DNA from: Candidatus Omnitrophota bacterium
GTDB taxonomy: Bacteria; Omnitrophota; Gorgyraeia; Gygaellales; Profunditerraquicolaceae
Direction of reading: 5' to 3'
Assembly (NCBI GenBank): GCA_017992455.1
Contig: JAGOOP010000001.1
Span: 59,723 to 123,722, forward strand
DNA length: 64,000 nt
Below, one piece after another: positions 1,781 to 64,000 of the stretch. The notes below the pieces were generated by a model, which was given only the letters and a program-made list of their open reading frames with translations, did no database searches and was not told the origin of the DNA. The position numbers and the translations under genes are program-made. Numbering within the stretch: the first letter of the stretch is position 1; every line of letters starts with the position of its first letter.

Positions 1781-1932
1781 GCTGTCGTGGCATAGTGTCT
1801 CGGGGACGTTCGCCGGCCCCGGCGTGGCCGGCTCACTCGGTTCCGCCCCTCACTCTGCCCGACCGATCAGCCTGCGTGGCATCCGTGCCCGTTCGGGGCT
1901 TCACAAGCCCCTCGACACTATGCCACGACAGC
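1781..1932. ncRNA. structured intergenic element E1: 19-bp perfect closing stem plus a ~114-nt GC-rich core (family with 62714-62885 and 21702-21935)
   Basis: 1781-1799 gctgtcgtggcatagtgtc is the exact reverse complement of 1914-1932. Internal hairpins at 1812-1832, 1878-1889 and 1895-1911. The core aligns with E4. Functional strand is unresolved. Confidence 0.6.
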
Positions 1933-2853: not shown

Positions 2854-3870
2854 TTAGAGAATCTCGACCTTTTTATTCCCTTTAACCGCGTCGCCGATGA
2901 CCCAGGATCTTATTTTAAGACCGCTCAGCGCCTCGATCACGTGCCCCGCAATGGACTGATCGACGACAAGCGCCATGCCGATGCCCATGTTGAGCGTATG
3001 GTACATCTCTTCATCGGAGATCCTCCCTTTAAACTGGATCAGCTTGAAAATGGGAGGGACCTCCCATGCAGACCTGTTGATGCGCACATCAATATCCGCC
3101 GGCAGGATGCGGCTGATCTTGTCGTAAAATGCGCCTCCGGTTATATGCGAGATGCCGCGGATCAATCGTTTCTTGTTGTTAAATTCATCAAGGACCGCCA
3201 GGACCGGCTTCACGTAGATCTTTGTGGGCTTGAGCAATTCGCCTGCCATCCGCTTTATCTCAGCCTGCGAAAATACGGCCCTCACGAGCGAATACCCGTT
3301 GGAATGGATACCGTTGGACGCCAGACCTATGACAGCATCCCCCGGCCGTATCGCGCTGCCGTCGACGATCTTATCCCTGTCGACCGCGCCGACGCAAAAA
3401 CCCGCCAGGTCATACTCGCCCGCCTTATACATGCCGGGCATCTGCGCAGTTTCTCCCCCGATAAGCGCGCACCCCGCCTGCATGCACCCTTCGTTCAGTC
3501 CTTTGACGATATCGACGAGGGTCTGACGGGGCAGCGAGCTGAACGCGATATAATCCAGGAAGAACAGCGTGGACGCGCCCGTGCAAAGAATATCGTTCAC
3601 GTTCATGGCCACGGCGTCGATGCCGACGGTCGCATGCCGGTTGACCGCGGCGGCGATCTTGAGCTTTGTGCCGACGCCGTCGGCTGAGGACACCAGCACC
3701 GGATCGCGCATGCCTTTGCCGGAAAACCGGTACAGGCCGCCGAAACCGCCGACGCTTTTGAGGACCTGCGGACCGAGCGATCCTCTGACAATGTTTTTAA
3801 GCGATTTTTTGAACGAATGCGCGGCGTTTATATCGACGCCCGCGGATTTGTAATCGATCCTTTTCCTCAT
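2854..3870 (-). CDS. purM: phosphoribosylformylglycinamidine cyclo-ligase (AIR synthetase)
   Basis: 338 aa. YKSAGVDI...GGFGGLY...DGVGTK motifs. ATGA overlap with the purF stop. Confidence 0.95.
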   Translation of the reverse strand: MRKRIDYKSAGVDINAAHSFKKSLKNIVRGSLGPQVLKSVGGFGGLYRFSGKGMRDPVLVSSADGVGTKLKIAAAVNRHATVGIDAVAMNVNDILCTGASTLFFLDYIAFSSLPRQTLVDIVKGLNEGCMQAGCALIGGETAQMPGMYKAGEYDLAGFCVGAVDRDKIVDGSAIRPGDAVIGLASNGIHSNGYSLVRAVFSQAEIKRMAGELLKPTKIYVKPVLAVLDEFNNKKRLIRGISHITGGAFYDKISRILPADIDVRINRSAWEVPPIFKLIQFKGRISDEEMYHTLNMGIGMALVVDQSIAGHVIEALSGLKIRSWVIGDAVKGNKKVEIL

Positions 3871-5315: not shown

Positions 5316-6724
5316 GTATCCCCCTGCGAACAGCTTTTTCCGGTCCAGCAGTACAAACACAGCTTTTCCCTCGGCAGGCCGATGGCGCCGATCATATCCT
5401 CGATCTTCTGATAACGCAGCGTCGTCGCCCCGGTTTCTTTGCGGATCCACTCCACCATCGCGCGGTGCTTCGCGGAATTCTCGTCTATATATTCGCCGAC
5501 ATCGCCGATGTCCCTGCCTTCCAGGCTCCTGATGGCGCGGCGCGCCGCAAGCTCCTGCGTGCTCCGCGTCGAAAAGTTGAACCTGCACGGGAACAAGAGC
5601 GGCGGGCAGGCGATACGCAGATGGATCTCCTTGACCCCGCAGTCCTTGAGTTTCTGGATCGTGTAATTTTTCAGCTGCGTGCCCCGGACGATCGAATCGT
5701 CGCAGATCACGATCCGCTTGCCCCTGATGATCTCCGGCACGGGGACCAGTTTCATTTTCGCGACGAGGTCGCGTATTTCCTGCGACGGCGGGGTATAACT
5801 GCGGCCGTAACCCGGCGTATATTTGATCAATACCCTGCGGTACGGCACGCCCGAACCCATCGCATAGCCGATGGCATGAGCGGTGCCTGAATCGGGAATA
5901 CCCGCGACGAGGTCTGCCTTGACCGCATCGCCCTTTGCCAGGGCCTTGCCGGAATTCTCCCTGACGATCTCGGTGTTGATCTCTTCATAGCTTGAGGACG
6001 GGAATCCCGTATATATCCACAGGAACGAACACGTTTGCGAAACCCCGGACCCTTTGCGCTGGGACCGCATCCCGGATTCGTCCATCAGAACGATCTCGCC
6101 GGGCGCCAGATATTTCTCGATCGTATACCCGAGATTATGGAACGCCGCGGTCTCGGTCGTTACCGCAACGGAACCGTTCTTTCTGCCGGCCATGAGCGGG
6201 AAATACCCATAGCGGTCGCGTGCCGCGTATATGCCGTCCTTGTTCAGGACCAGAAGCGAGCATGAGCCGGATATCTCGGCGAACATCTGCTCGATGCCGG
6301 AGACGATGTCCTTGCCGCGGATGATCAGCTTGGCCACGAGCTCCGTCAGGTTGACCTTGCCGTTGACCACCTCGCTGAAAGACTCGCCCTTGCTGTACAA
6401 ACGTTCGACGAGGTCTTCGGCGTTGTCGATATAGCCGTTGGTCACGATCGCGAAAGGCCCGAAGCGCGAATTCACGTACAGCGGCTGTTCTTCATTGGCG
6501 CTGATGACGCCGATGCCCTTATTCCCGTCGAAGGTTTTGTAATCCTCGAAGAATTTCGATTTGAACTGGCTGGCAGCGATACCGTGGATCTTGCGGTTGA
6601 GCTCCCGGCCGAACACGGCAAGGCCTGCGAACTGCGTTCCCAGATGCGAATGATAATCCGTGCCGTAAAAAAGCTCCTCCCGGCAATCATCCCCTTTTGT
6701 CACCACGCCGAATATTCCGCTCAC
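5255..6724 (-). CDS. amidophosphoribosyltransferase-like paralog with Ser in place of the N-terminal Cys nucleophile
   Basis: 489 aa. GTG start with a strong AAGGAGA RBS. Begins M-SGIFGVV. Keeps TNG, the PRPP loop VICDDSIVRGTQ and Fe-S Cys positions (CLYC). Its 3' end overlaps the purF start by 61 nt. Confidence 0.8.
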   Translation of the reverse strand: MSGIFGVVTKGDDCREELFYGTDYHSHLGTQFAGLAVFGRELNRKIHGIAASQFKSKFFEDYKTFDGNKGIGVISANEEQPLYVNSRFGPFAIVTNGYIDNAEDLVERLYSKGESFSEVVNGKVNLTELVAKLIIRGKDIVSGIEQMFAEISGSCSLLVLNKDGIYAARDRYGYFPLMAGRKNGSVAVTTETAAFHNLGYTIEKYLAPGEIVLMDESGMRSQRKGSGVSQTCSFLWIYTGFPSSSYEEINTEIVRENSGKALAKGDAVKADLVAGIPDSGTAHAIGYAMGSGVPYRRVLIKYTPGYGRSYTPPSQEIRDLVAKMKLVPVPEIIRGKRIVICDDSIVRGTQLKNYTIQKLKDCGVKEIHLRIACPPLLFPCRFNFSTRSTQELAARRAIRSLEGRDIGDVGEYIDENSAKHRAMVEWIRKETGATTLRYQKIEDMIGAIGLPREKLCLYCWTGKSCSQGDTCKRRSSKTVQKNTAGCSAS

Positions 6725-6736
6725 TCAATATCTCCT

Positions 6737-7528
6737 TTATGTATGTTTGGCCGCATAGAGCACGCCGTTCCTGAATATCTGCCTGCCGTCAACGCTCCGG
6801 CACCCGGCCATGTGCCAGCGGGGATGCTGGGATACGAAGATATGACGTTCGGGATGGGGCATCAATCCGAGGATACGGCCGGTCTCGTCGCAGATCCCGG
6901 CGATATTATCCTGCGAACCGTTCGGATTGTGCGGGGATCCGGCAAGCCGCCCCCCGCTGTCGCAATACTGGAAAACGATCTGGCGGTTCTTTTTGAGCCT
7001 TTTCAAGACCGCATCGTCGGCTGTAATGAACTTGCCCTCGCCGTGCGCTATGGGCAGCGACAGGACAGGGGGCAGATCGGCCGTCCACGCGCATTGTGCC
7101 GCCGGCTTTGTTTCCGCCGGTTTCAAATATACCCACTCGTCCCGGAAAAGGCCGCTGTCATTGATGATCAGGCTTGCCTCCTGCCTGAGTTCGGCGTTGC
7201 CCGGGAGAAGCCCCGCCTTGACGAGGACTTGAAAACCGTTGCAAATGCCGATGATCAGTTTCCCGTCGCCGATGAACTTCCTGACCTGGCCGGCAAGCTT
7301 GAATTTCAGCTCATTGGCAAGCACCTTGCCCGCGGATATATCGTCCCCGTAGCTGAAACCGCCCGGCAGCGCAAGGATATGGTATTCATCGAGCATTCTG
7401 ACGCGCTGCAGGAACCGGTTGATATGGACAAGCTCCGCAGCCGCTCCCGCCTGTTCGAACGCGAACGCGGTTTCAACGTCGCAATTGGTCCCGGCGGTCC
7501 TCAATACGCATACTCTGGGGTTCTTCAT
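6737..7528 (-). CDS. purQ: phosphoribosylformylglycinamidine synthase, glutamine amidotransferase subunit
   Basis: Start trimmed to MKNPRVCVLRTAGTNCD (ATG at 7528, ATGA overlap with the upstream stop). GICNGFQ catalytic Cys and HGEG...MPHPER His/Glu motifs. Confidence 0.9.
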   Translation of the reverse strand: MKNPRVCVLRTAGTNCDVETAFAFEQAGAAAELVHINRFLQRVRMLDEYHILALPGGFSYGDDISAGKVLANELKFKLAGQVRKFIGDGKLIIGICNGFQVLVKAGLLPGNAELRQEASLIINDSGLFRDEWVYLKPAETKPAAQCAWTADLPPVLSLPIAHGEGKFITADDAVLKRLKKNRQIVFQYCDSGGRLAGSPHNPNGSQDNIAGICDETGRILGLMPHPERHIFVSQHPRWHMAGCRSVDGRQIFRNGVLYAAKHT

Positions 7529-8199
7529 TTTCTGCGTTTCTTGTAGAAATTCCTTATTATGGAAACGACTTCCCGGGGGCTGTCGGTGACGCTGAAGATG
7601 TCCAGGTCGGTGCGGCTCACGCATCCCGACGGCACAACGGTCTTTTTCAACCAGTCGATGAGCCCTTTCCAGTATTCCGTGCCGACCGCGATGATCGGAA
7701 AGTCAGGGATACGCATCGTCTGGATAAGGTTCAACGCCTCGCTGAATTCGTCGAGCGTGCCGTAGCCGCCGGGCATGATGACGAATGCTTTCGCATATTT
7801 GACGAACATGACCTTGCGCACGAAAAAATACCGGAAATCGATAAGCGTATCGACATACGGATTGGCCTTCTGCTCCATGGGAATATGGATGTTCAGCCCG
7901 ATGGAATGGCCTTTGGCGCGCCGGGCGCCGCGGTTGCCCGCTTCCATAAGGCCGGGCCCGCCGCCGGTCACGATCGCGTATCCGTCCTTTGCGAGCAGAT
8001 ACGCGACCTCCTCGGTCAGCTTGTAATATTTATGGTTTGCCGGCAGGCGCGCCGACCCGAAGATCGACACTGCCCTGCCCATCGCGGACAGCGTCTCGAA
8101 CCCGTCGACGAACTCGGCCATGATGCGGAATATGCGCCACGGGTCCTCATCGGTAAAATCACGGCGTGCGCCGTCGGTTTCATACGGGATTTTCGCCAT
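7525..8199 (-). CDS. LOG family protein (TIGR00730-type nucleotide 5'-monophosphate nucleosidase / lysine-decarboxylase-like)
   Basis: 224 aa. GGGPGLMEA and PGGYGTLDE (PGGxGTxxE) motifs. AAGGAGA RBS. Coupled to purQ by an ATGA overlap. Confidence 0.85.
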   Translation of the reverse strand: MAKIPYETDGARRDFTDEDPWRIFRIMAEFVDGFETLSAMGRAVSIFGSARLPANHKYYKLTEEVAYLLAKDGYAIVTGGGPGLMEAGNRGARRAKGHSIGLNIHIPMEQKANPYVDTLIDFRYFFVRKVMFVKYAKAFVIMPGGYGTLDEFSEALNLIQTMRIPDFPIIAVGTEYWKGLIDWLKKTVVPSGCVSRTDLDIFSVTDSPREVVSIIRNFYKKRRK

Positions 8200-12681: not shown

Positions 12682-12885
12682 ATGGCTAAAGGCAAAGTGA
12701 AGTGGTTCAGCAATCAGAAGGGATACGGCTTCATCACCGGCGAGGACGGCAAGGACGTGTTCGTTCATTACAGCGCCGTGACCGGAGAAGGCTACAAGAC
12801 GCTCGAAGAAGGGCAGGAAGTCGAGTTTGAAGTCACACAAGGACCTAAAGGAGACCAGGCGACCAACGTACACAAGGCTGCGTAA
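12682..12885 (+). CDS. cspA: cold-shock protein (CSD family)
   Basis: 67 aa. [18 protein letters not shown] (RNP1) and VFVHYS (RNP2). GGGAGG RBS. Confidence 0.95.
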
Positions 12886-12907
12886 TCTCTTTATATAAAG
12901 CGCAAAA

Positions 12908-12943
12908 GCCGCTGTAATATATGATATTACAGCGGCTTTTTTT
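12908..12943. terminator. bidirectional intrinsic terminator
   Basis: 13-bp perfect stem GCCGCTGTAATAT/ATATTACAGCGGC with a 3-nt loop. Flanked by AAAA upstream and T7 downstream. It sits between two convergent genes. Confidence 0.8.
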
Positions 12944-13357: not shown

Positions 13358-13364
13358 CAATATG

Positions 13365-13436
13365 TGCCGAAGGAGGGAATCGAACCCCCTACGCCGGCCT
13401 TTTCAGGGCCGCGCTCTACCAATGAGCTACTTCGGC
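13365..13436 (-). tRNA. tRNA-Phe (GAA)
   Basis: Reverse complement is GCCGAAGTAGCTCATTGGTAGAGCGCGGCCCTGAAAAGGCCGGCGTAGGGGGTTCGATTCCCTCCTTCGGCA. Cloverleaf with anticodon loop CTGAAAA and a TTCGATT T-loop. CCA is not encoded. Confidence 0.9.
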
Positions 13437-18406: not shown

Positions 18407-20419
18407 TTACGCTATCAATTGTTTGATCTTATCGATATGCCTGCGCGCCTCTTCCTCGCCGCGCCCGGCAAATGCCTCTGACTTATGCAGCGCCAGCCAG
18501 TGCAGGCCTGACAGATCCGGGTGCAACACGACATCCGCCAGCTGGGCCTCTTTCTGGGCGACCTCGGACTGCATGATCTCGAAGCTCGAGAAAATAAAAT
18601 CAAGGATGTTCGTCTTGAACTGTTCCTGGATATACCGCTTGAGATTGAACCACTCCCTGCCGTGCGCGCTTGCCGTATCGCCGTTCAGATCGTCCTTGAC
18701 CGATTCGTACTGGCGCTTGATATCCTCGCGCGACGGGGTCACGTTCACGGCGATGACCCGTTTAACGCCCATTTCGACGAGCGGTTCGGTCGGCAAAGGG
18801 CTCAGGACCCCGCCGTCGAACAGCATCTGGCCTTTCATCTTGAACGGCATGAATATGCCCGGCATCGAACAGCTTGCCATGATGGCGTCGACGAGCGTGC
18901 CCCGGTCAAGCACCATGGTCTCGCGGCGTTTGACGTCGGAGGCCACGATCTTGAGCGGGATCTTGACGTCATAGAACGTCATGTTCCCGAGATACTTCTT
19001 CAGAAAACCGTAGAGCTTGTTGCCTTTGATGAACCCCTGAAGCGGAAGCGTAAAATCAAGAAGGTTCAGGATATATTGCGGCTGCCTGAATTCCCGGGTG
19101 ATGCTCAATATCTCGGCGCTCGAGCGGCCCGTTGCCCAGAGGCTTGCGATGACCGAACCGATGCTGGCCCCGGAGATCATATCGATCGGGATCTTTTCCT
19201 CTTCGAGGACTTTCAGCACGCCGATGTGGCACAGGCCGTAGGCCGCCCCGACGCCCAGGGCCAGCCCCACCAGGCAATCGCCTTCCTGGCGCGCGATCCT
19301 GCGCATCACCTTGGCGTACGGAGATAAAGGCGTATCGATGACCGCCCTGCCTGCCGCGCGCGCCTCGATATGCGGCAGGCTGGCGAACACGTCCCGGCCG
19401 AGCAGTTTCAACGTATCCTCGGAGCTGATGCGCGACTGCCGCGCCGCGTTCAGGATGATCTTGAGCTTCTGGACGGGAAAATGATATTCCTCATCGAGCG
19501 TTTTTGCGAGGATCCGGGTCGACCGCAGGTCGAGCGGCCGCGGGCTTGTCAGGATGTGGATGATATCGGCCTGGTTCAGTATATTCAACACGGCCTGCTC
19601 GCGCGTGGACGGCAGATCGATGATCACGAAATGATATTCGTTGACCAGGCGGCTGAGCATCTCGACAACGGTCCTCTGCCAGGACGGGTCATCGTGCGTA
19701 TACGTGACATATATCAGGTCTATGCCGAACTTGTCCTTGAGAATGTAGTCTTTGTACTGCGCCGTGCTGGCGATCCTGCTTGAAAGATTGAAGACCCGGT
19801 ATGATTCCCGCATGCCCAGGACACGCGGCAGACGGTGTATTTTTTCCGGAGGGCATATGTCGAGGATGATGACCCGCTTATGCGCTTCCCTGCTGATGCC
19901 GAACGCCAGATTCGACGCGTACACGGTCTTGCCCGCCTGCGGATATGAACTCAACACCGAAATGATGGTGCTCTCGAAAACAGTCTTCTGTCTGATATCC
20001 TTGTGTTTAAGGCGGCGGGAGAGCGCCCGTCCGAGCTCGATCGCAAGGCCCGGGACCTTGCGCAGAATAGCCTCAAAATCGTCGACGCTGACGGCAAGGA
20101 GGAGCGCGTCGTTGATGGCGCGCGCGGTGACCGAATGTGGTTCGCCGGTCAGGCTGGAGATGACCCCGAAATATTTCCCGCGGTGCAGATGTTCGAGCGT
20201 GGTCTGCTTACCGTAGCGGTCCTGCGTGGACACGGCGACCCTGCCGCGGATAATGCAATAAAAATAGGACGGCGCCGACCCTTCCTTATAAACGATCTGC
20301 CCTTTTCTGAATTCGAGAAACCGGGCCTTTTGCCGTACATAACGCTGCTGCTGCGCCGTAAGCCCGGAGAACAACGGGAACTCTTTCAGGATATAATCGT
20401 AATCGGTCGCGCGTTTCAT
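18407..20419 (-). CDS. cyclic-nucleotide-binding / MinD-ParA-like (degenerate P-loop) / patatin-like phospholipase three-domain protein
   Basis: 670 aa. An N-terminal CAP-type cNMP domain; a middle SIMIBI-like segment (SSYPQAGKT, FVIIDLPS); a C-terminal patatin domain (GVGAAYG, GASIGS, DGG). Confidence 0.8.
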   Translation of the reverse strand: MKRATDYDYILKEFPLFSGLTAQQQRYVRQKARFLEFRKGQIVYKEGSAPSYFYCIIRGRVAVSTQDRYGKQTTLEHLHRGKYFGVISSLTGEPHSVTARAINDALLLAVSVDDFEAILRKVPGLAIELGRALSRRLKHKDIRQKTVFESTIISVLSSYPQAGKTVYASNLAFGISREAHKRVIILDICPPEKIHRLPRVLGMRESYRVFNLSSRIASTAQYKDYILKDKFGIDLIYVTYTHDDPSWQRTVVEMLSRLVNEYHFVIIDLPSTREQAVLNILNQADIIHILTSPRPLDLRSTRILAKTLDEEYHFPVQKLKIILNAARQSRISSEDTLKLLGRDVFASLPHIEARAAGRAVIDTPLSPYAKVMRRIARQEGDCLVGLALGVGAAYGLCHIGVLKVLEEEKIPIDMISGASIGSVIASLWATGRSSAEILSITREFRQPQYILNLLDFTLPLQGFIKGNKLYGFLKKYLGNMTFYDVKIPLKIVASDVKRRETMVLDRGTLVDAIMASCSMPGIFMPFKMKGQMLFDGGVLSPLPTEPLVEMGVKRVIAVNVTPSREDIKRQYESVKDDLNGDTASAHGREWFNLKRYIQEQFKTNILDFIFSSFEIMQSEVAQKEAQLADVVLHPDLSGLHWLALHKSEAFAGRGEEEARRHIDKIKQLIA

Positions 20420-21636
20420 TCAAGCTGGTTGGTCGAACAAACCTTTGAATATTTCCGGGCGCTGTCCCGCACGGTTCGCGCTCCGGTCCGGTAATCGATG
20501 CCGATCAGGCCGAAACGGGGATCGAACCCTTTATCCCATTCAAAATTGTCCATGAACGACCAGTAGGCGTACCCGATCACCGCAATGCCGTTTTGGATCG
20601 CCGCGTGGACCCGCGACAGATGCTCGCGTATGAAATCCCATCGCACGCTGTCGTCCGGCGTGCAGATGCCGTTCTCGAGGATGAACACCGGCAGGCGGTA
20701 TCTGTTCAACATCATAAGAATATCGTATATGCCCTGCGGATATATTTCCCAGCCGAGAGAGTTCTTGGCGAGCGTATCGTCATGATGGCTGCATGCGTTG
20801 CACACCAGGTCCCGCATGGACCAGCTGTCCGCATGGACCAGGGTACGGCTGTAATAGTTGACGCCGATATAATCGAGCGTCCTGCGGCGGGCAAGGATCC
20901 CCAGGATATTATGATTGACGATCGCGTTGCGCAGCCGGACGCCGAGGCGGTCGCGGATGCTGCCGGTGCATGCCGTATAAGCGGGCATATGATGGGCAAT
21001 GCTCACTTTCGGACGCGGCAAACCCCGCTTCTCGTATATGGCATGGATCAGGCGGTAGGCGCGGACATGGCTGCGGAGAAAATTATTCCTGGCAGCAAGC
21101 GCTTTTGGCAATGAACGGACATTCGGAGGCCAGTCTCCCACAATATAGCCGTAGAACACATAGATCAGCGGCTCATTGATCGTGACCCAGTAGGTGACAC
21201 TGCCGGCCAGTTCGCTGACGATGCGGTTTACATACGCCAGGAAATGATCCGCGGCGCGGGGGCATGCCCAGCCGCCCTGTTCGGCAAACCATTGGGGGCT
21301 GGTAAAATGATGGAGGGTCACGACCGGCTCTATGGAACGCTCGCGCAGCGCAGCGATAACGTCCTTATAATGCGCGATAGCCTCCGCAGAGAACTCTCCC
21401 TGGCGCGGCTCGATGCGGCTCCATTCCACCGATAAGCGATGACAGGTATGGCCGAGGGATCCGGCAAGATCGAAATCCTCCCGGTACCGTTCGTAATGCC
21501 TGCAGGCGCCGGCGGAAGGAGCTTTGCCTCCTCCTCGCTGTTCCCAATGCCACCAATCGCTGTTTGTGTTATTGCCTTCGACCTGATGAGCGGACGTGGC
21601 AGCGCCCCACAGGAATTTATCTGGGAATCGCATCAT
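20416..21636 (-). CDS. beta-glucosidase, glycoside hydrolase family 1
   Basis: 406 aa. FLWGAATSAHQVEG, TINEP (acid/base) and ILENG (nucleophile). ATGA overlap with the downstream gene. No SD upstream. Confidence 0.9.
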   Translation of the reverse strand: MMRFPDKFLWGAATSAHQVEGNNTNSDWWHWEQRGGGKAPSAGACRHYERYREDFDLAGSLGHTCHRLSVEWSRIEPRQGEFSAEAIAHYKDVIAALRERSIEPVVTLHHFTSPQWFAEQGGWACPRAADHFLAYVNRIVSELAGSVTYWVTINEPLIYVFYGYIVGDWPPNVRSLPKALAARNNFLRSHVRAYRLIHAIYEKRGLPRPKVSIAHHMPAYTACTGSIRDRLGVRLRNAIVNHNILGILARRRTLDYIGVNYYSRTLVHADSWSMRDLVCNACSHHDDTLAKNSLGWEIYPQGIYDILMMLNRYRLPVFILENGICTPDDSVRWDFIREHLSRVHAAIQNGIAVIGYAYWSFMDNFEWDKGFDPRFGLIGIDYRTGARTVRDSARKYSKVCSTNQLE

Positions 21637-21686: not shown

Positions 21687-21936
21687 CTCTGATAGAAAAA
21701 AGCCGATAAAGGCGTACTCCACCTTCATCATACTCGGCAACCCAGCCACCATATCAACCGCGCGCGCCCCGCGGCGCCCGCACCTGCAATGCGCCGTGCG
21801 GCAGGCGGCTGACGTAGGTCTGAGGCTTTGCCCCGCACTTCAAGCATGCCAAGTCACGGGGTCCCGGAATAGTCAGTTTTCGAGTCTGCTCGGTCCGGGA
21901 CGTCCCCCGATTTCTCGAGGTTTGCCTTTATCGGCC
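21657..21936 (-). ncRNA. unclassified ~280-nt structured RNA E2 with its own promoter and terminators; the 5' half is related to the E1/E4 core
   Basis: There is no ORF. GCCGAUAAAGGC (21935-21924) pairs perfectly with 21713-21702 and is followed by U6. The interior is GC-rich with many hairpins. A promoter lies directly upstream and a terminator downstream. Confidence 0.65.
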
Positions 21937-31426: not shown

Positions 31427-31483
31427 GGCCTGCGGGACCTATTTCTGAAAGCGCTTTCAAAACACAGGGACGGTTCTCCCCAA

Positions 31484-31565
31484 GGCTAAAAAACGGGGTC
31501 AGAATTATTTATTTGCCGCGATGCGCTTAGCTAACAAATAAATAATTCTGACCCCGTTTTTAGCC
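31484..31565. terminator. very long AT-rich hairpin; probable bidirectional terminator after hppA
   Basis: The 32-nt arm at 31484-31515 pairs with 31535-31565 (one bulged A) across a 19-nt loop. The inner stem GGGGTCAG.../...CTGACCCC is flanked by an A6 and a T5 run. Confidence 0.7.
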
Positions 31566-31570
31566 CTTGC

Positions 31571-33670
31571 TTATTTAAAGAACGTGTTCTTGATGATGAA
31601 CGACGCGAATACGATCGAGACCATTGACATGAGTTTGATCAAAATGTTCAGCGAAGGGCCTGACGTGTCCTTGAAAGGATCGCCGACGGTATCGCCGGTT
31701 ACCGCTGCCTTATGCGCAGCCGAACCTTTGCCGCCGTGGTTGCCTTCTTCGATATATTTCTTTGCATTGTCCCACGCTCCGCCGGAATTTGCCATCATGA
31801 CCGCAAGCACAAAACCCGTAACGGTTGCACCGCATAAAAGCCCGACCGCTGCTTCGACGCCGACTAAAATACCCACAGCAAGCGGGGAAATGATCGCCAC
31901 AAGCGCAGGCGCGACCATTTCTTTCTGCGCCGCGCCCGTTGCGATCGACACGACACGCGCATAATCCGGCTTTGCCTTGCCCTCCATGAGGCCGGCGATC
32001 TCCTTGAACTGCCTGCGTACTTCAACAACGATCTTGCCTGCGGCGCGGCCGACCGCGCGCATGGTCATTGAGCAGAAAAAGAACGGAAGCATACCGCCGA
32101 TGAACAGCCCCACAAGGACATTCGGATTCATCAGGGACATCACGATATCCTTGCCCGATATGATCAGAACCTGGTCGCGATAGGCGGCGATAAGCGCCAG
32201 CGCGGTCAATGCGGCAGAACCGATCGCAAAACCTTTCCCTGTCGCCGCCGTGGTATTGCCGAGAGAATCCAGAGCATCGGTCCTTTTGCGCACTTCAGGA
32301 GGCAAATGCGACATCTCGGCGTTGCCGCCGGCATTGTCTGCGACCGGGCCGTATGCATCGGTTGCCAACGTGATACCGAGGGTAGAAAGCATGCCGACCG
32401 CGGAAATGGCAATGCCGTATAACCCCGTATTGAAATTCTGCGCGCCGCCTGCCAGATAGTAACTGGCAAGGATCGCGACACACACGATGATGACCGGCAA
32501 GGCAGTCGACATCATGCCGACCGCTATGCCTTCGATAATGACCGTTGCGGGGCCGGTAACCGTCGCATTGGCGATGCTCTGAGTAGGTTTGAAACCGCTC
32601 GATGTATAGTATTCAGTGACCAATCCAATCAGAACGCCGGCTACCAATCCGGCAAGCACTGCCCAATAAACACCGAGATGCTCGGCGCCGAGGGTCTTGA
32701 CGATCAGGAAATACGAAATAATAGCGACGAGGATCGAGCTGGCGAACACGCCTTTTCTCAAAGCTGCAAGAAGCACTTTCTGCGACGCTTCTTCTTTGCT
32801 TTTGACAAAGAACGTGCCGATGACCGACGCGATGACGCCGACCGCTGCCATGACCATAGGCACGGTTACGCCTGCAACGCCGAGGCCTGCGGCAACGCCG
32901 AGCGCGCTTGTGGCGACGATCGAACCGACATATGATTCATACAGATCAGCGCCCATACCTGCGACATCGCCGACATTGTCGCCGACGTTGTCGGCAATGA
33001 CCGCCGGGTTCCTCGGGTCGTCTTCGGGAATGCCCGCTTCCACTTTACCCACCAGGTCAGCGCCGACATCGGCCGCTTTGGTGAAAATGCCGCCTCCGAC
33101 CCTTGCAAAAAGCGCCATTGAGCTCGCGCCCATGCCGAAACAAAGCATGGTCGAGGTGATCGCCGCGATCTTATCCCCGTTGCCCGGCACCGGATTGACC
33201 CGGTAATACCAGTCGAGGAAATAATACCAGATGCTCAGGTCCAGCAGGCCGAGGCCGACAACGGTCAGGCCCATGACAGCACCGCTTGAGAATGCCACGC
33301 GCAAACCTGAGTTCAGGCTTTTCATCGCTGCCGCAGCAGTGCGGTTCGATGCCTGTGTTGCGATGGTCATGCCGATAAAACCGGACAACCCGGAAAAAAA
33401 GCCGCCGGTCAGAAAGGCGAACGGCACGAACATGACCAGATACCCCCTGAACGCAAGGAACAGCAAAAGGCAGAACATGACGACAAAGAATAACGCAACG
33501 CCCATATACTGGCGTTTCAAATAGGCCCGCGCGCCGATACGGACCGCCTCAGCTATCTCTTTCATCTTGTCGGTCCCCTCATCCTTTTTCATAATGCTTA
33601 CGGCAAGGAACCACGCAAAACCAAGTGCAACGATCGAACCCACAGGCGCCAGCAATAACAAATCAAACAT
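31571..33670 (-). CDS. hppA: membrane-bound proton/sodium-translocating pyrophosphatase
   Basis: 699 aa, polytopic. [19 protein letters not shown] and DNVGDNVGD motifs. AGGAGG RBS. Confidence 0.95.
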
Positions 33671-38010: not shown

Positions 38011-38925
38011 TTATTTTTTTTCGGCAAGATAGCGAAAGGCGCTTAAGCAGGCTTTTGCACCCTCCCCGGCTGCGATGATGATCTGTTTCTCCGGCACATC
38101 GGTGACGTCGCCCGCGGCAAAAACGCCCGGGATATCAGTCCGGTTCCTGCAATCGATTTTTATTTCGCCGAGATCGTTCGTCGCGACCTCTTGTGCAAAG
38201 CCGGAATTGGGCACAAGGCCGATCTCGATAAAGATACCCTGCACCGCAAGGCGTTTCTCCGTGCCTTCATGCGAGATCGCAATGCCGCTGACGAACCGAT
38301 CCCCGGTAATGGCAGTAACCTGCGCATTATTCATGATTGTCACGCCCGAAGACGATGCCGCTTTTTCGGCCATAACCTTATCGCCGGTGGTCTGCGGAGC
38401 ACTGTTGATCACATAGGTGTGTTGAGCAATGCGCGTCATCTGCAAAGCCGCATCAAGGGCTGAATTGCCTCCGCCCACGATTGCCACGTCCTTGCCGCCG
38501 AACAGCGGGCCGTCGCACGTGGCGCAATACGTCACGCCCTTGTTCTTGAATTCATTTTCACCCGGGACACCGAGCTCCCGGGACCGTTTCCCGGACGCGA
38601 TGATCACTGCCCGGGCCTCATACTCCGCTTTATCGGTAATGACGCGCTGCCCGGAGCCGGCGCCGCGCTTCAGAGCAACGATCTCTTCCGATTCCTTCAG
38701 ATCGATCCGGTACTGGCGCAGATGCTCCTCGAATTTCGCCGCAAGCTCGGGGCCGGTCACGAACTGATACCCGGTGTAATTCTCAACGTCCCCGCTCCAC
38801 GCCGCCTGGCCGCCGATGTCTTTGGAAATAACGCAGAAGTCCATGCGCTTGCGGGCGGCATATACCGCGGCAGTTATGCCCGCCGGCCCTGCGCCGATAA
38901 TGATCAGGTCATAGATTTTTGTCAT
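38011..38925 (-). CDS. thioredoxin-reductase / AhpF-like FAD-dependent disulfide oxidoreductase
   Basis: 304 aa. IIGAGPAG, redox-active CATCDG and GGGNSA motifs. Confidence 0.85.
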   Translation of the reverse strand: MTKIYDLIIIGAGPAGITAAVYAARKRMDFCVISKDIGGQAAWSGDVENYTGYQFVTGPELAAKFEEHLRQYRIDLKESEEIVALKRGAGSGQRVITDKAEYEARAVIIASGKRSRELGVPGENEFKNKGVTYCATCDGPLFGGKDVAIVGGGNSALDAALQMTRIAQHTYVINSAPQTTGDKVMAEKAASSSGVTIMNNAQVTAITGDRFVSGIAISHEGTEKRLAVQGIFIEIGLVPNSGFAQEVATNDLGEIKIDCRNRTDIPGVFAAGDVTDVPEKQIIIAAGEGAKACLSAFRYLAEKK

Positions 38926-38938
38926 AGATCGTTGCTGC

Positions 38939-39020
38939 GGGCATGGGTATGTGTCCGATGCGAGTTCCGCAGCCCTGAAAGGGCGAGGACTGTTCGAGCA
39001 GCGGGCACATACCCATGCCC
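38939..39020. ncRNA. intercistronic hairpin E3: 18-bp stem plus a 46-nt interior, possibly a reduced member of the E1/E4 family
   Basis: GGGCATGGGTATGTGTCC (38939-38956) pairs with GGGCACATACCCATGCCC (39003-39020), with one G-U when read on the + strand. The interior holds GCCCTGAAAGGGC and GAGTTCCGCAGCCCT. Confidence 0.45.
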
Positions 39021-39034
39021 TCGCGCGCCGTATA

Positions 39035-39274
39035 TTACGATAATCCCAGTGCCTGCTCTATCTTCGGCCTGTCGAAGCCGACGATGATCCGGCCGTCTAT
39101 CTCGATGACCGGCACGCCGAGCTGTCCGGATTTGCGAACCATTTCGTCCGCTTTTCCCTGATCAATACCGACGTCGTAATTTTCATAGGCAATACTGTTC
39201 TCCGCAAGGAACTGTTTCAACCGGATGCAATGCGGACACGACGCGGTGCTGTACACGAGTATCGTATGGGCCAT
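39035..39274 (-). CDS. glutaredoxin-like protein (CPHC active site)
   Basis: 79 aa. VYSTASCPHCIRLKQFL...GVPVIEIDG. Confidence 0.85.
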   Translation of the reverse strand: MAHTILVYSTASCPHCIRLKQFLAENSIAYENYDVGIDQGKADEMVRKSGQLGVPVIEIDGRIIVGFDRPKIEQALGLS

Positions 39275-49267: not shown

Positions 49268-49295
49268 GAAACCCTCCTCACGAAAATGATAAAGA

Positions 49296-49329
49296 CAGGG
49301 GTCAATAGGCATATGCCTACTGACCCCTG
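49296..49329 (-). terminator. intrinsic terminator
   Basis: CAGGGGTCA...TGACCCCTG stem with an inner TAGGCA/TGCCTA palindrome. A U-rich tail follows on the minus strand. Confidence 0.65.
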
Positions 49330-49350
49330 GCGTTATGCGTACCGCGCAAC

Positions 49351-61200: not shown

Positions 61201-61457
61201 TGCCGTATGGCCCTTTCATAATCTAAAAGCGTTTTTTTTCTGCGAAGCCCGAACACGTACCCGCCGAGCGAATGATCGCTGGCGATCACCCGGTGGCAGG
61301 GGATGATCCCGGGCCACGGATTGTGCTTCAGTATTTGCCCGACCGCGCGGCACGCGCCGGGCCTGCCCGCTTGAGCGGCGACCCATCGATACGACCGCGT
61401 CTGCCCGACGGGAATGGCGCTGACGATACGGTAGACTTTCCGCGCAAAAGGAGTCAT
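61179..61457 (-). CDS. ogt: methylated-DNA--protein-cysteine methyltransferase (active-site domain only)
   Basis: 92 aa. PCHRVI active site and the HTH part. ATGA overlap with uvrC. Confidence 0.85.
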   Translation of the reverse strand: MTPFARKVYRIVSAIPVGQTRSYRWVAAQAGRPGACRAVGQILKHNPWPGIIPCHRVIASDHSLGGYVFGLRRKKTLLDYERAIRQCLLTRK

Positions 61458-62704
61458 GATCCGAAGGTCTTTTTGCTGTGAAGAAGATGATGGTATGCCC
61501 GCGCAAACCGGTGCGCCTCGTCCCTGACCCTGCGGATCAGGTTCAACGCAGGAGTATCGTGCTTAAGCCGGACGGGCTTGTCCCTGCCTTTAATATACAG
61601 GTTCTCGTCCTCTTTGGCAATACTTAACAGCGCGCATGATACCCCGAGGCCCGCGAGGACCTCCTGAGCGGCTGCCAGGTGCTGTTTCCCGCCGTCAATG
61701 ATCACCAGGTCTGGCAAGCCGGCGCGCTCCGTTGTCAGGCGCGCGTACCTGCGCCGCACCACTTCCCTGATCATGGCGTAATCGTCGATGCCCGAGACCG
61801 TCTTGATCCTGAAGCGGCGGTAATTCTTTTTATCGGGCGCGCCTTTATAAAAGCTCACCATCGAACCCGTGGCCTCCTGGCCGGAGATATTCGAGATATC
61901 GAACCCCTCGATGCGCAGCGGCATATGCTTCAGGCCCGCCAGATGCTTGAGATCCTCAAGCTGGTCGGCGCTGGTAAAATGCACGGTATCCCTGCCGATA
62001 GCGCAGAGCGCGAAGATCCGGTCGCGCAATACAGCCGCATCTTCGAACCGGCGCTCCTCAGACGCCCGGCGCATCTCGAACGACAGCGTATCGATGAGCT
62101 GCTCGTATTTCGAATCGAGGAACAAGCGGATATCGCGGATGATCCCGGCATATTTCTGCGCATCGATGAGGCCGGCGCACGGCGCAGGGCACAGCCTGAG
62201 CCGGTGATACAGGCACGGCCGGGCAGGCATGGACGCGCACGTGCGGAAACCGAATATCTTGCGCACGGCCTTGAGCGCCTGGCGCAGGACCTTTGAATTC
62301 GCGTACGGGCCGTAATATACCGCTTTGTCTTTCCTGCGCTTTTCCGGGTCCTTGTTGCGGCATATCGTTATCGCGGGAAACGCATCGTCCGATATCCTGA
62401 TCAGCGGGAACGATTTGTCGTCTTTCAGGCTGATATTATACTGCGGCTGTTTTTCCTTGATAAGCGACGCTTCGAGAAGCTGGGCCTGGAATTCAGTGGG
62501 GGTGAGGATATATTCAAGGTCAAAGATACGGCCGACGAGCGCCTGGGTCTTTGCCGAAAGGAACCGGTTGAAATACGACTGCACGCGCTTTTTGAGGACC
62601 TTCGCCTTCCCTATATATATGATATTGCCGGAAGCGTCCTTGTAGATATAGACGCCCGGGGCTTCGGGAAGCGCATCGACTTTTCGCTTAAGTTCTGTAT
62701 CCAT
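61454..62704 (-). CDS. uvrC: excinuclease ABC subunit C, short form lacking the C-terminal (HhH)2 domain
   Basis: 416 aa. GIY-YIG (PGVYIYKD..IIYIGKA), UVR domain, and EGFDISN...IIDGGKQHL...VRDEAHRFA. It ends just after this block. Confidence 0.85.
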   Translation of the reverse strand: MDTELKRKVDALPEAPGVYIYKDASGNIIYIGKAKVLKKRVQSYFNRFLSAKTQALVGRIFDLEYILTPTEFQAQLLEASLIKEKQPQYNISLKDDKSFPLIRISDDAFPAITICRNKDPEKRRKDKAVYYGPYANSKVLRQALKAVRKIFGFRTCASMPARPCLYHRLRLCPAPCAGLIDAQKYAGIIRDIRLFLDSKYEQLIDTLSFEMRRASEERRFEDAAVLRDRIFALCAIGRDTVHFTSADQLEDLKHLAGLKHMPLRIEGFDISNISGQEATGSMVSFYKGAPDKKNYRRFRIKTVSGIDDYAMIREVVRRRYARLTTERAGLPDLVIIDGGKQHLAAAQEVLAGLGVSCALLSIAKEDENLYIKGRDKPVRLKHDTPALNLIRRVRDEAHRFARAYHHLLHSKKTFGS

Positions 62705-62713
62705 CGTATTCCC

Positions 62714-62885
62714 GTTGCGGCATCCGTTCTGCCTGCGTCCTCAGGGACGCTCCTGCGGCCCCGGCGTGGCCGCAGTCGCTCGATTCCGGCCCCTCGCTCT
62801 TGCAGACCATCATTGGCAGCGGCAATCCATGCCCGCTCGGGGCCTCCAACGCCCTTCGGATCGCAGGCAGAACGGATGCCGCAAC
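62714..62885. ncRNA. structured intergenic element E4: 24-bp perfect closing stem plus a conserved core (second copy of the E1 family)
   Basis: 62714-62737 gttgcggcatccgttctgcctgcg is the exact reverse complement of 62862-62885. The core is collinear with E1, including the 17-nt identity cggccccggcgtggccg. Confidence 0.6.
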
Positions 62886-62890
62886 CTGAA

Positions 62891-64000
62891 CTATGAACGG
62901 ATCCCGAACATCTTCGAAAAACTCTTGATCTGCTCGATCCGGAGGGCATGGCACATGATGACGTACGCGGCGATGCCGCAGCCGATCGGAAGCGCGAGAT
63001 CGAATGCGCGGACCAGCAGGTGATTACGCAGGGCGACGTGGTATGTCGAGGCGATAAAGCAGACCTCGCCCATGATAATGCTGGCGCACAGCACCCGGAA
63101 CGAAAATTCAAGCAGGCCCCGGACGCGGAATCCACCCAGTTTCCTGCGCAATATCATAAAAAGCATCAGAAAACTGCTGATGCCCGATATCGACGTCGCA
63201 AGCGCCAGGCCGGACAGTTTGAGCGGGAACATAAAGATCGCGTTCAGGCAGACGTTGAGGACAAGCGCGATCGCGGCGACCTTTGCCGGCGTCACCGTGT
63301 CCTTGATCGCGAAATATCCGCACTGCACGATGCGCGTCGCTCCGTACGCGAACAGCCCGATGCTGTAGAAAAATAACGCGCCCGACGTGATCCCGGTCGA
63401 ATACGCATTGAACCTGCCCCCCTGGAACAGGGAAGATATGACCGTCTTTGAGAGGACCATGAACCCGACGGACGCGGGTATCATGACAAAAAGAACGGAA
63501 CGAAGGCCGAAAAGAAGCGTTTCTTTCAACTGCGCGTGATCCCCTTCGGCCGCCCGGGAAGAAAGCGCGGGCAGGATCGCCTGCGACAGCGAATTCCCGA
63601 ATATGCCCAGCGGGAACTGGATCAGCCGGTACGCGAAATAAAGCGCGGCAACGCCGCCGTCGCCCACGATCCAGGCAAGCGACCCGAAAATGGAATCGGC
63701 AAAGTTATTCAACTGATATATTGCCGAGCTGAAAAGCCGCGGCGTCAGCAGAACGCCGATCCGCCTGACCGCAGGATGGCCAAACCGCGCTGACGGTTGA
63801 AAACGGAACCCTTTCCGGTATAACATCGGCAGCTGGATGGCAAGCTGCAGCGCGCCGCCGATAAGCACGCCTGATGCAAGGCCCGTGGTCCCTTCCCCCC
63901 ACGCAAGCGCGCACAGAATGATCGAAATGTTCAACAGGCAGGGCCCGAACGCGGGAAGCGTAAAATGGCGCAGAGAGTTCAGGACCGCAGTGCAATACGC
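62891..64000 (-). CDS. murJ: lipid II flippase MurJ (N-terminal part outside the window)
   Basis: The frame stays open to position 64000; the track start is an internal TTG. Polytopic, with typical MurJ C-terminal half sequence (FGHPAVRRIGVLLTPRLF...). Confidence 0.85.
   Translation of the reverse strand, partial: AYCTAVLNSLRHFTLPAFGPCLLNISIILCALAWGEGTTGLASGVLIGGALQLAIQLPMLYRKGFRFQPSARFGHPAVRRIGVLLTPRLFSSAIYQLNNFADSIFGSLAWIVGDGGVAALYFAYRLIQFPLGIFGNSLSQAILPALSSRAAEGDHAQLKETLLFGLRSVLFVMIPASVGFMVLSKTVISSLFQGGRFNAYSTGITSGALFFYSIGLFAYGATRIVQCGYFAIKDTVTPAKVAAIALVLNVCLNAIFMFPLKLSGLALATSISGISSFLMLFMILRRKLGGFRVRGLLEFSFRVLCASIIMGEVCFIASTYHVALRNHLLVRAFDLALPIGCGIAAYVIMCHALRIEQIKSFSKMFGIRS

Follow-up and report, generated by a model that had tools for sequence, protein, structure and literature searches.

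Among the repeats described in bacterial genomes, bcr1 of the Bacillus cereus group is the closest precedent for the element reported here. It is ~155 bp long, has a non-conserved genomic distribution, is transcribed along with its neighbours, and its fold is kept through compensatory changes (PMC3184786). The ERIC/IRU and Correia (NEMIS) repeats are imperfect palindromes of 100-160 bp that are present in transcribed intergenic regions in either orientation, where they form long RNA hairpins that can serve as RNase substrates (general knowledge; reviewed in PMC3184786). We analysed a stretch of 64,000 nucleotides from a Candidatus Omnitrophota bacterium (assembly GCA_017992455.1, contig JAGOOP010000001.1, positions 59,723 to 123,722 of the forward strand; hereafter, the window). 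Two copies of a structured palindromic element, E1 (1781-1932) and E3 (62714-62885), are present in it. We lean towards the view that both are copies of an undescribed, low-copy, non-autonomous mobile palindromic element of the MITE (miniature transposable element with inverted repeats), bcr1 or ERIC kind, so far found only in Omnitrophota. The copies form a family with a common fold and strand-symmetric pairing. They are present or absent at given gene junctions among relatives and are independent of orientation and of the neighbouring genes.

Pattern scans and a covariance model, R1, identified 14 distinct copies in at least six organisms, all of them Candidatus Omnitrophota metagenome-assembled genomes (MAGs) or metagenome contigs. 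A two-block core pattern was scanned across one genome per species (185,579 species) and gave five true copies, spread over three Omnitrophota MAGs, and a chance match to coding sequence. The scan of a three-block pattern across the JGI metagenomes (241 million records) gave six matches, comprising four new copies, one duplicate of the L002 copy and one chance match. R1 was built from 12 sequences, includes 159 positions and 38 pairs, and aligns the 14 copies. Its use added two divergent copies (L005:3148-3307 and L004:6353-6540) and a variant without the arm that we term P2 (L020/L021:3832-3960). The element is ~150-190 nt long, with no conserved open reading frame (ORF) among the copies. The strict pattern matched once or twice per MAG among the species genomes, and the copy number per genome appears to be low, a few rather than hundreds.

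Some surroundings of these copies were recorded as well. Two copies that belong to one subfamily have a tRNA gene within ~300 nt (L002:7298-7455, with the tRNA at 7773-7844, and L008:542-700, with the tRNA at 227-300). Their flanks are otherwise non-homologous, and the proximity to tRNA genes may be a coincidence or a weak neighbourhood preference. Between leuS and the P2-less copy of L020 there is a noncoding stretch of ~390 nt (L020:3440-3830) with no Rfam match at the gathering threshold; in the matching L021 stretch beside the P2-less copy, an unannotated ORF of 116 aa was called.

E1 is a full copy of the repeat and matches R1 at 131.3 bits (E ~1e-30), where its plus sign denotes the orientation of the family model only. 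The outer closing stem, P1, is formed by a 5' arm at 1781-1799 (GCTGTCGTGGCATAGTGTC) and a 3' arm at 1914-1932, both given on the plus strand, and the second is the exact 19-nt reverse complement of the first, as an earlier sequence-only reading of this DNA had claimed. A longer version of the inverted repeat, of 25 nt, holds at 92%. A search for the arm that tolerated up to three mismatches returned these two sites only, against 0.01 matches expected from shuffles. For the plus strand of the 152 nt, the predicted RNA fold reaches -86.2 kcal/mol (z = -7.6), for the minus strand -87.9 kcal/mol (z = -6.3), and folding as DNA gives -49.1 kcal/mol (z = -7.3). The RNA folds are far more stable than those of shuffles, in keeping with the earlier description of a discrete structured element.

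The family architecture consists of the long closing stem P1, a short inner helix P1b (AGGG with CCCU) and then a three-way junction. The junction arms are P2, a hairpin with a conserved 7-nt loop, and P3 (GCCCC with GGGGC), inside which lie the variable hairpin P4 and a large internal loop that is near-invariant. On the plus strand of E1, the 5' strand of P1b (GGGG, 1802-1805) pairs with CCCC at 1908-1911; 100% of the cells of this helix are paired across the family and 2/4 pairs are compensatory. P2 spans 1812-1832, with stems at 1812-1818 and 1826-1832 and the loop CCGGCGT at 1819-1825, and 5/9 of its pairs (helix 5 of the model) are compensatory. The hairpin GCCGGCC/CCGGCGT/GGCCGGC named in the sequence-only reading is thus present and covaries among the copies. 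P2 is found in 13/14 copies, with the loop CCGGCGT in 11 and CCTGCGA in two, and is absent from L020:3832-3960. It is followed by a conserved single-stranded junction, J2/3 (1833-1844, +), which reads TCACTCGGTTCC in E1 and CGCTCGGTTCC in the family consensus. The P3 domain (1845-1899, +) is closed by GCCCC at 1845-1849 with GGGGC at 1895-1899, and is 98.6% paired with 4/5 pairs compensatory. Inside it, P4 joins TGCC (1856-1859) to GGCA (1878-1881) below a variable tip (3/4 pairs compensatory). The internal loop ATCCGTGCCCGTTC at 1881-1894 is near-invariant, CCRTGCCCGCTC being invariant in the alignment, and the unpaired motifs are CTCGCTCT on its 5' side and ATCCRTGCCCGCTCG on its 3' side. 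In the outer stem P1 (helix 1), 7/9 modelled pairs are compensatory.

Across the 14-copy alignment, 96.2% of the 520 cells hold standard pairs and 26/38 pairs have changed on both sides, counts to be read with the caveat that this alignment was fitted to R1. The covariation score was 0.444 compared with 0.140 ± 0.016 for shuffles, none of 500 scoring as high, and did not exceed 0.097 when partners were slid by one to three columns. An independent MAFFT/RNAalifold run recovered the same fold, with 21/38 pairs compensatory. The covariation that had been proposed as a test of the element is strong. Two local hairpins in the sequence-only reading, GGCA/UGCC at 1878-1889 and GGGGC/GCCCC at 1895-1911, exist in E1 but do not describe the family; they show no compensatory pairs, and the first is only 61% paired across the copies. 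The nested fold that it had offered as an alternative (1802-1805 with 1908-1911, and 1845-1849 with 1895-1899) is the conserved one, being 99% paired with 6/9 pairs compensatory and 0/500 shuffles as good. A pseudoknot between the P2 loop and the 3' region, sought by eye, was inconsistent across the subfamilies.

The second copy in the window, E3 (62714-62885, +), matches R1 at 146.7 bits and is closed by a perfect 24-bp stem (62714-62737 with 62862-62885). Its core is 75% identical to that of E1 over ~120 nt and its closing stem is different; the recurrence of the same core at this position had been noted in the sequence-only reading. E3 nearly fills the spacer between murJ, of which the 3' part is in the window (62891-63934, minus), and a uvrC-like gene (61454-62704, minus). 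In the direction of transcription, 5 nt separate the murJ stop codon from its start, and 9 nt lie between its end and the uvrC ATG. The murJ gene probably runs beyond the end of the window, as its orthologues measure 524-534 aa.

E1 occupies most of a 224-nt spacer (1749-1972, minus), with AT-rich flanks of 31 and 40 nt. Upstream of it in the same operon lies an SPFH/Band_7 gene (1973-2839, minus), itself preceded by purM (2854-3870), and this gene order is kept in relatives. Immediately downstream is purD (471-1748, minus), which encodes phosphoribosylamine-glycine ligase (Pfam GARS_N/A/C); its product is 100% identical to the Omnitrophota MAG protein P0001. E1 splits a purine operon directly upstream of purD, as had been reported from the sequence. 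The 456-aa ORF noted earlier as covering E1 (655-2025, +) runs antisense to purD.

Both junctions are empty in related genomes. Where purD is 80-83% identical, the Band_7 and purD genes are 3 nt apart in L013 (...GAATAGAATATG...), and overlap in L015 and in the contig of P0010. In one relative, the contig of P0008, they are separated by 79 nt. The 224-nt spacer with E1 was found only in strains of the window's own species, among them L014, whose DNA matches that of the window at 98.6% identity over 11.7 kb. E1 is also identical in sequence and orientation in six other assemblies of this species. At the second junction, murJ and uvrC are 2 nt apart in L016 and L017 (uvrC 84% identical) and 4 nt apart in L018 and L019 (76%), and they overlap in L020 and L021 (71%). 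A copy at the same junction is also present in the MAG JAPLLR01 (L005), a genome syntenic with the window. This copy has the opposite orientation to E3 and is from a different subfamily (P2 loop CCTGCGA, P3 GGACC/GGTTCC), so two independent arrivals are more likely than shared descent. The comEC|BamD junction measures 43-98 nt in relatives and holds a copy in JAPLLR01. In L010, a copy lies beside a tRNA gene, and the syntenic part of the window has none.

An A-C pair on one strand of the element corresponds to a G-U pair on the other, and this was used for strand assignment. In structured RNAs, G-U pairs are usually tolerated in much larger numbers, and on a single strand. The attempt gave no answer, since the counts are symmetric: G-U pairs were found in 5/520 cells and A-C pairs in 5/520, ~1% each, with no strand asymmetry. 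Changes on one side of a pair are nearly absent from the 14-copy alignment (a single cell). Relative to the neighbouring genes, eight copies are in the opposite direction and five in the same direction. The flanking genes are unrelated housekeeping genes (purD, uvrC, rpsI/argC-like, BamD, folD, xerC-like and tRNA genes).

No promoter-like or terminator-like site was identified near E1. Around E3, the only match of either type is a promoter-like site inside the uvrC coding sequence, downstream of the element, and the spacer leaves no room for a promoter or terminator of its own. Neither element has a U-tract (the sequence after the arms of E1 is UGUUGAAACC or GAUGAAUC), and the statement that E1 is not a simple intrinsic terminator is borne out. 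The symmetric pair types, mixed orientation and absent transcription signals together indicate a constraint that acts on both strands. Such a constraint could reflect a DNA hairpin or cruciform, or an element that is transcribed whichever way the host operon runs; the evidence does not point towards a strand-specific RNA gene.

The idea that E1 serves the operon in which it lies, for example as an RNase III or regulatory site for purD, is not borne out, as copies lie by unrelated genes in both orientations, the junctions are empty in relatives and there is no strand asymmetry. A purD-specific regulator, such as a ZTP-like riboswitch, was rejected on the same range of neighbours, the other copies flanking uvrC, rpsI/argC-like, BamD, folD, xerC-like and tRNA genes. 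The ORF adjoining the L006 copy is likewise not purD. That copy (L006:245-403) is directly adjoined by a unit in which an 82-nt inverted repeat, 88% identical (L006:481-562 and L006:2640-2721), surrounds the gene for an AAA_21 (AbiEii-like) ATPase and the next gene; the unit may be a small mobile defence cassette.

Relations between the copies resemble those of a repeat in turnover. The cores of L007:1757-1912 and L012:2548-2703 are 98% identical and their outer stems 54% identical, while the two copies L005a and L005b show the reverse (core 70%, outer stem 94%). The stem differences between L007 and L012 are mostly transitions that are compensated on the other arm, both stems staying paired, and in this pair the outer stem evolves or is exchanged far faster than the core. 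Copies within one genome have genome-specific modules in common. On sequence comparison, this discordance of core and stem suggests recombination or gene conversion between copies together with a fast, pairing-preserving turnover of the outer stem. The three JAPLLR01 copies have in common a ~300-nt composite, in which a core-less partner hairpin in inverted orientation follows the full element tail to tail (L003:2659-2717, L005:7626-7685 and L005:3020-3100). The partners are nearly invariant and more conserved than the full copies; each may have arisen from a full copy by internal deletion, or may be a distinct hairpin that is functional or serves as a target. In L004, two full copies of different subfamilies (6353-6540, + and 6608-6766, -) lie tail to tail, 67 nt apart in one spacer, which may point to insertion beside existing copies or to a REPIN-like dimeric unit.

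If E1 and E3 are copies of a mobile palindrome, the element would spread at the DNA level, probably moving as a folded single strand or a cruciform. An enzyme supplied in trans may recognise it through the invariant loops CCRTGCCCGCTC, CTCGCTCT and CGCTCGGTTCC. Template switching in the palindrome, or correction of one arm against the other, would keep the perfect arms complementary, in addition to selection for the fold. Template-switch correction of quasi-palindromes is a known route to perfect arms without selection. An inserted element would be co-transcribed passively with the host operon as a very stable hairpin that has no terminator tail, and for this reason its presence would be tolerated where two genes were formerly coupled in translation, as at Band_7|purD and murJ|uvrC. 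Whatever it did to the processing of the mRNA or the translation of purD would be a secondary effect. We infer the mobilising mechanism in its entirety, as no transposase, autonomous partner or target rule was found.

Several observations weigh against a mobile element. The low copy number is unusual for MITEs. No target-site duplication was seen at E1, E3, L007, L009 or L012, and these sites have no flanking target in common. No autonomous element or transposase with the same termini was found within the ~450 kb of sequence searched. Two independent insertions at murJ|uvrC require either a target preference or a coincidence. Finally, the loops and junctions are strongly conserved between lineages in which housekeeping proteins are only ~70-80% identical; such conservation is as expected of a transposase recognition site as it is of a functional RNA. 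The possibility that the arms were copied from flanking target DNA was considered for an 8-nt match at E3 (ATCCGTTC) and was dropped, as it did not generalise.

The main rival is that the element is a functional structured RNA, either a module acting in cis in operons (a site for processing by RNase III or RNase E, a stabiliser of the mRNA or a translation uncoupler) or an excised small RNA, and that paralogous copies are kept because the RNA is useful. We regard this as unlikely, although it explains the loops and the fold equally well. It is favoured by the very strong covariation, the invariant loops and the extremely stable folds on either strand. E1 and E3 lie inside operons and, judged from gene order and, for E3, from the lack of room for a promoter of its own, must be co-transcribed; read-through is preserved, there being no terminator tail. 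E1 is also unchanged in seven assemblies whose surroundings differ by ~1.4%, although the power of this comparison is weak, with only ~2 changes expected. Set against this are the mixed orientation (eight versus five), with inversion at the sole shared locus, the lack of a consistent gene partner, the empty sites in close relatives, the absence of a G-U excess on either strand (1% versus 1%) and the absence of an Rfam match.

The search for a known identity gave the following results. At the gathering threshold, Rfam 15 matched nothing but a tRNA in the window, and again tRNAs alone in ten related loci. At E<=10, E1 and E3 gave only chance long-stem matches to miRNA-precursor models, among them MIR839 (27 bits, threshold 200), plus DnaX (16 bits, threshold 35). 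The claim that no known RNA family accounts for the element therefore held when the proposed Rfam search was run. ARAGORN found nothing tRNA-like and no tmRNA at E1 or E3, its sole call being a tRNA-Phe at 13364-13436. A phage or plasmid origin was not supported, as blastn against plasmids and phages gave no match and neither did two viral-contig scans. Full-text literature searches returned no paper linking Omnitrophota to such an RNA or repeat. The element family is absent from Rfam and from the searched literature.

A further reading, to which we assign a low probability, treats the element as a new type of self-contained structured nucleic-acid parasite or symbiont of Omnitrophota, with an active module formed by the invariant junction and loops of the ~110-nt core. 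The module would be a folded single-stranded DNA site for a host or phage HUH or recombinase enzyme, or else a small catalytic or protein-recruiting RNA. Insertion would then be precise, at coupled stop/start junctions and without target duplication, and hairpin-templated repair would regenerate the outer stem, which evolves fast yet is perfectly paired.

It is very unlikely that the element belongs to the self-cleaving ribozymes or is some other catalytic or retro-mobile RNA, with a long closing stem that serves to bring its two ends close. The compact three-way junction and the near-invariant internal-loop nucleotides would suit such an RNA, and many small ribozymes are similarly dispersed and independent of orientation (general knowledge). 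However, the hammerhead, twister, pistol, hatchet and HDV models remained unmatched even at E<=10, and direct reading revealed no hammerhead core (CUGANGA...GAAA) on either strand. There is no reverse transcriptase nearby, the P2 arm is dispensable in L020, and the purely Watson-Crick, strand-symmetric pairing argues for DNA.

We consider it extremely improbable that E1 and E3 are invertons, in which the inverted repeats would flank a segment of ~100 nt flipped by a site-specific recombinase, thereby switching purD or uvrC expression. The perfect 19-24-bp inverted repeats around a segment of 102-124 nt would fit such a switch, as would the opposite orientation of the core at murJ|uvrC in two lineages; the JAPLLR01 copy, however, is of a different subfamily and is not a flipped E3. 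E1 was found in a single orientation with identical sequence in seven independent assemblies, although consensus assemblies cannot show minor subpopulations. No promoter-like site is present inside the element, the covarying nested internal helices are not needed by an inverton, and the inverted-repeat sequences differ among copies to the extent that one recombinase could not recognise all of them. A type I toxin-antitoxin or other micro-ORF locus transcribed on both strands is hardly credible: the invariant motif CC(A/G)TGCCCGCTC holds an ATG or GTG in every copy, and the copies are low in number, sporadic and intergenic like type I loci (general knowledge), but this start gives MPARG before the frame shifts between copies through indels that are not multiples of three, and on direct reading of the alignment the start lacks a preceding Shine-Dalgarno sequence and the encoded peptides are basic, not hydrophobic.

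The sequence-only reading had listed a third, extended copy at 21702-21935. This block, E2, does not belong to the family: it did not align with the core, and the family model gave no match to it at E<=10 even when the filters were turned off. E2 is a distinct block, GC-rich and 234 nt long, in the 349 nt of spacer upstream of the gene for a GH1 glycosidase (20416-21636, minus). A perfect 12-bp repeat of its own closes it (GCCGATAAAGGC and GCCTTTATCGGC), a second repeat of 11 bp lies outside that one, and the RNA fold of E2 has z = -4.1. The Rfam search gave chance hairpin matches only, and the c-di-GMP-I-GGC model scored 31 bits at 21888-21935 (minus strand), below its threshold of 59.

Other hairpins were noted in the window. 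A GC-rich intergenic hairpin at 38914-39045, with 48-nt arms that are 71% complementary, lies just upstream of the start of a minus-strand gene (38011-38925); its arms contain GGGCATGG and CCATGCCC, reminiscent of the invariant CCATGCCC of the E1 family, and its R1 score is only 12 bits. An AT-rich palindrome with 35-nt arms, 91% complementary, is present at 31481-31569, in the 193-nt spacer before the gene at 31571-33670. A further palindrome at 49289-49336 has abutting 24-nt arms that are 88% complementary. The compact spacers of Omnitrophota seem to be home to several unrelated hairpin elements. A cold-shock protein gene (12683-12940 region) is followed by a perfect 17-bp hairpin at 12904-12940, with an A-run before it and a T-run after it. 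This is a classical two-way intrinsic terminator, and the organism thus uses U-tract terminators, unlike E1 and E3.

These results have implications for the annotation of such genomes. Omnitrophota spacers of this kind can be read as carrying a mobile structured repeat rather than a purine-operon regulator or riboswitch candidate, and R1 can flag such insertions in Omnitrophota MAGs. The Band_7|purD and murJ|uvrC junctions provide a natural experiment, in which the element separates genes whose translation is coupled in relatives, and they show compact genomes tolerating very stable hairpins (~-86 to -114 kcal/mol) inside operons. Covariation that is restricted to Watson-Crick pairs and symmetric between the strands is a diagnostic that separates DNA-level palindromes from true RNA genes. 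If a partner enzyme were found, the conserved loops would define a new folded-DNA recognition system.

With respect to structured RNAs in Rfam (such as HEARO, ROOL, raiA, 6S, Y RNA and riboswitches), the element resembles them in its covariation-backed fold and in forming a GC-rich block in an AT-rich spacer, but no family reaches threshold or a meaningful E-value on any copy. It also differs from integron attC sites (R'' RYYYAAC ... R' GTTRRRY, with extrahelical bases in an imperfect stem), as its stems are perfect, the ends of E1 read GCTGTCG...CGACAGC, and those of E3 (GTTGCGG...CCGCAAC) are the reverse of the attC arrangement.

The lack of target duplication, and a hairpin structure that outweighs terminal sequence, are features in common with REP/REPIN-RAYT systems and with the PATEs of IS200/IS605. 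The inverted doublets of REPINs resemble the tail-to-tail pairs in L004, L003 and L005, and the strand-symmetric Watson-Crick pairing fits recognition of a folded single DNA strand. However, REPs are 20-40 nt long, carry a conserved 5' GTAG-type tetranucleotide and number hundreds of copies, whereas the Omnitrophota element has 150-190 nt, a complex core and one to two strict matches per MAG. No RAYT or TnpA gene turned up, a RAYT gene not having been specifically searched for. PATEs have two similar subterminal hairpins and a fixed target of 4-5 nt by the left end; the Omnitrophota element has neither, with a single closing stem and left flanks that differ (…CAACA, …TTCCC, …AACCT, …ACTGC).

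As in MITEs, the 14 copies are short, non-coding, dispersed, and present or absent between relatives. Terminal inverted repeats are found in every copy, with a weak common motif (TGYCTTGGC) but an outer-stem identity between copies of only 31-77% outside single genomes; the target-site duplication of MITEs was not seen. ERIC and Correia repeats differ in having conserved terminal inverted repeats, with a TA duplication in Correia, in reaching tens to hundreds of copies, and in interiors that are not a conserved multi-helix junction. Within the Omnitrophota family, conservation is highest in the loops and lowest in the outer stem.

The likeness to bcr1 is closer, in that both are of similar size and dispersed, vary in distribution among relatives, and keep their fold through compensatory changes. 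There is no sequence similarity, and bcr1 has 5-bp direct repeats at its ends, which were not seen at the Omnitrophota element. Furthermore, bcr1 is composed of two independent stem-loops, whereas the Omnitrophota element has one long closing stem around a three-way junction, and its copy number looks much lower. The element is thus a well-supported new family in an uncultivated phylum, of a general kind of bacterial repeat that is already known. Two features are unusual and can be tested, namely its Watson-Crick-only covariation and its precise residence in coupled gene junctions without target duplication.

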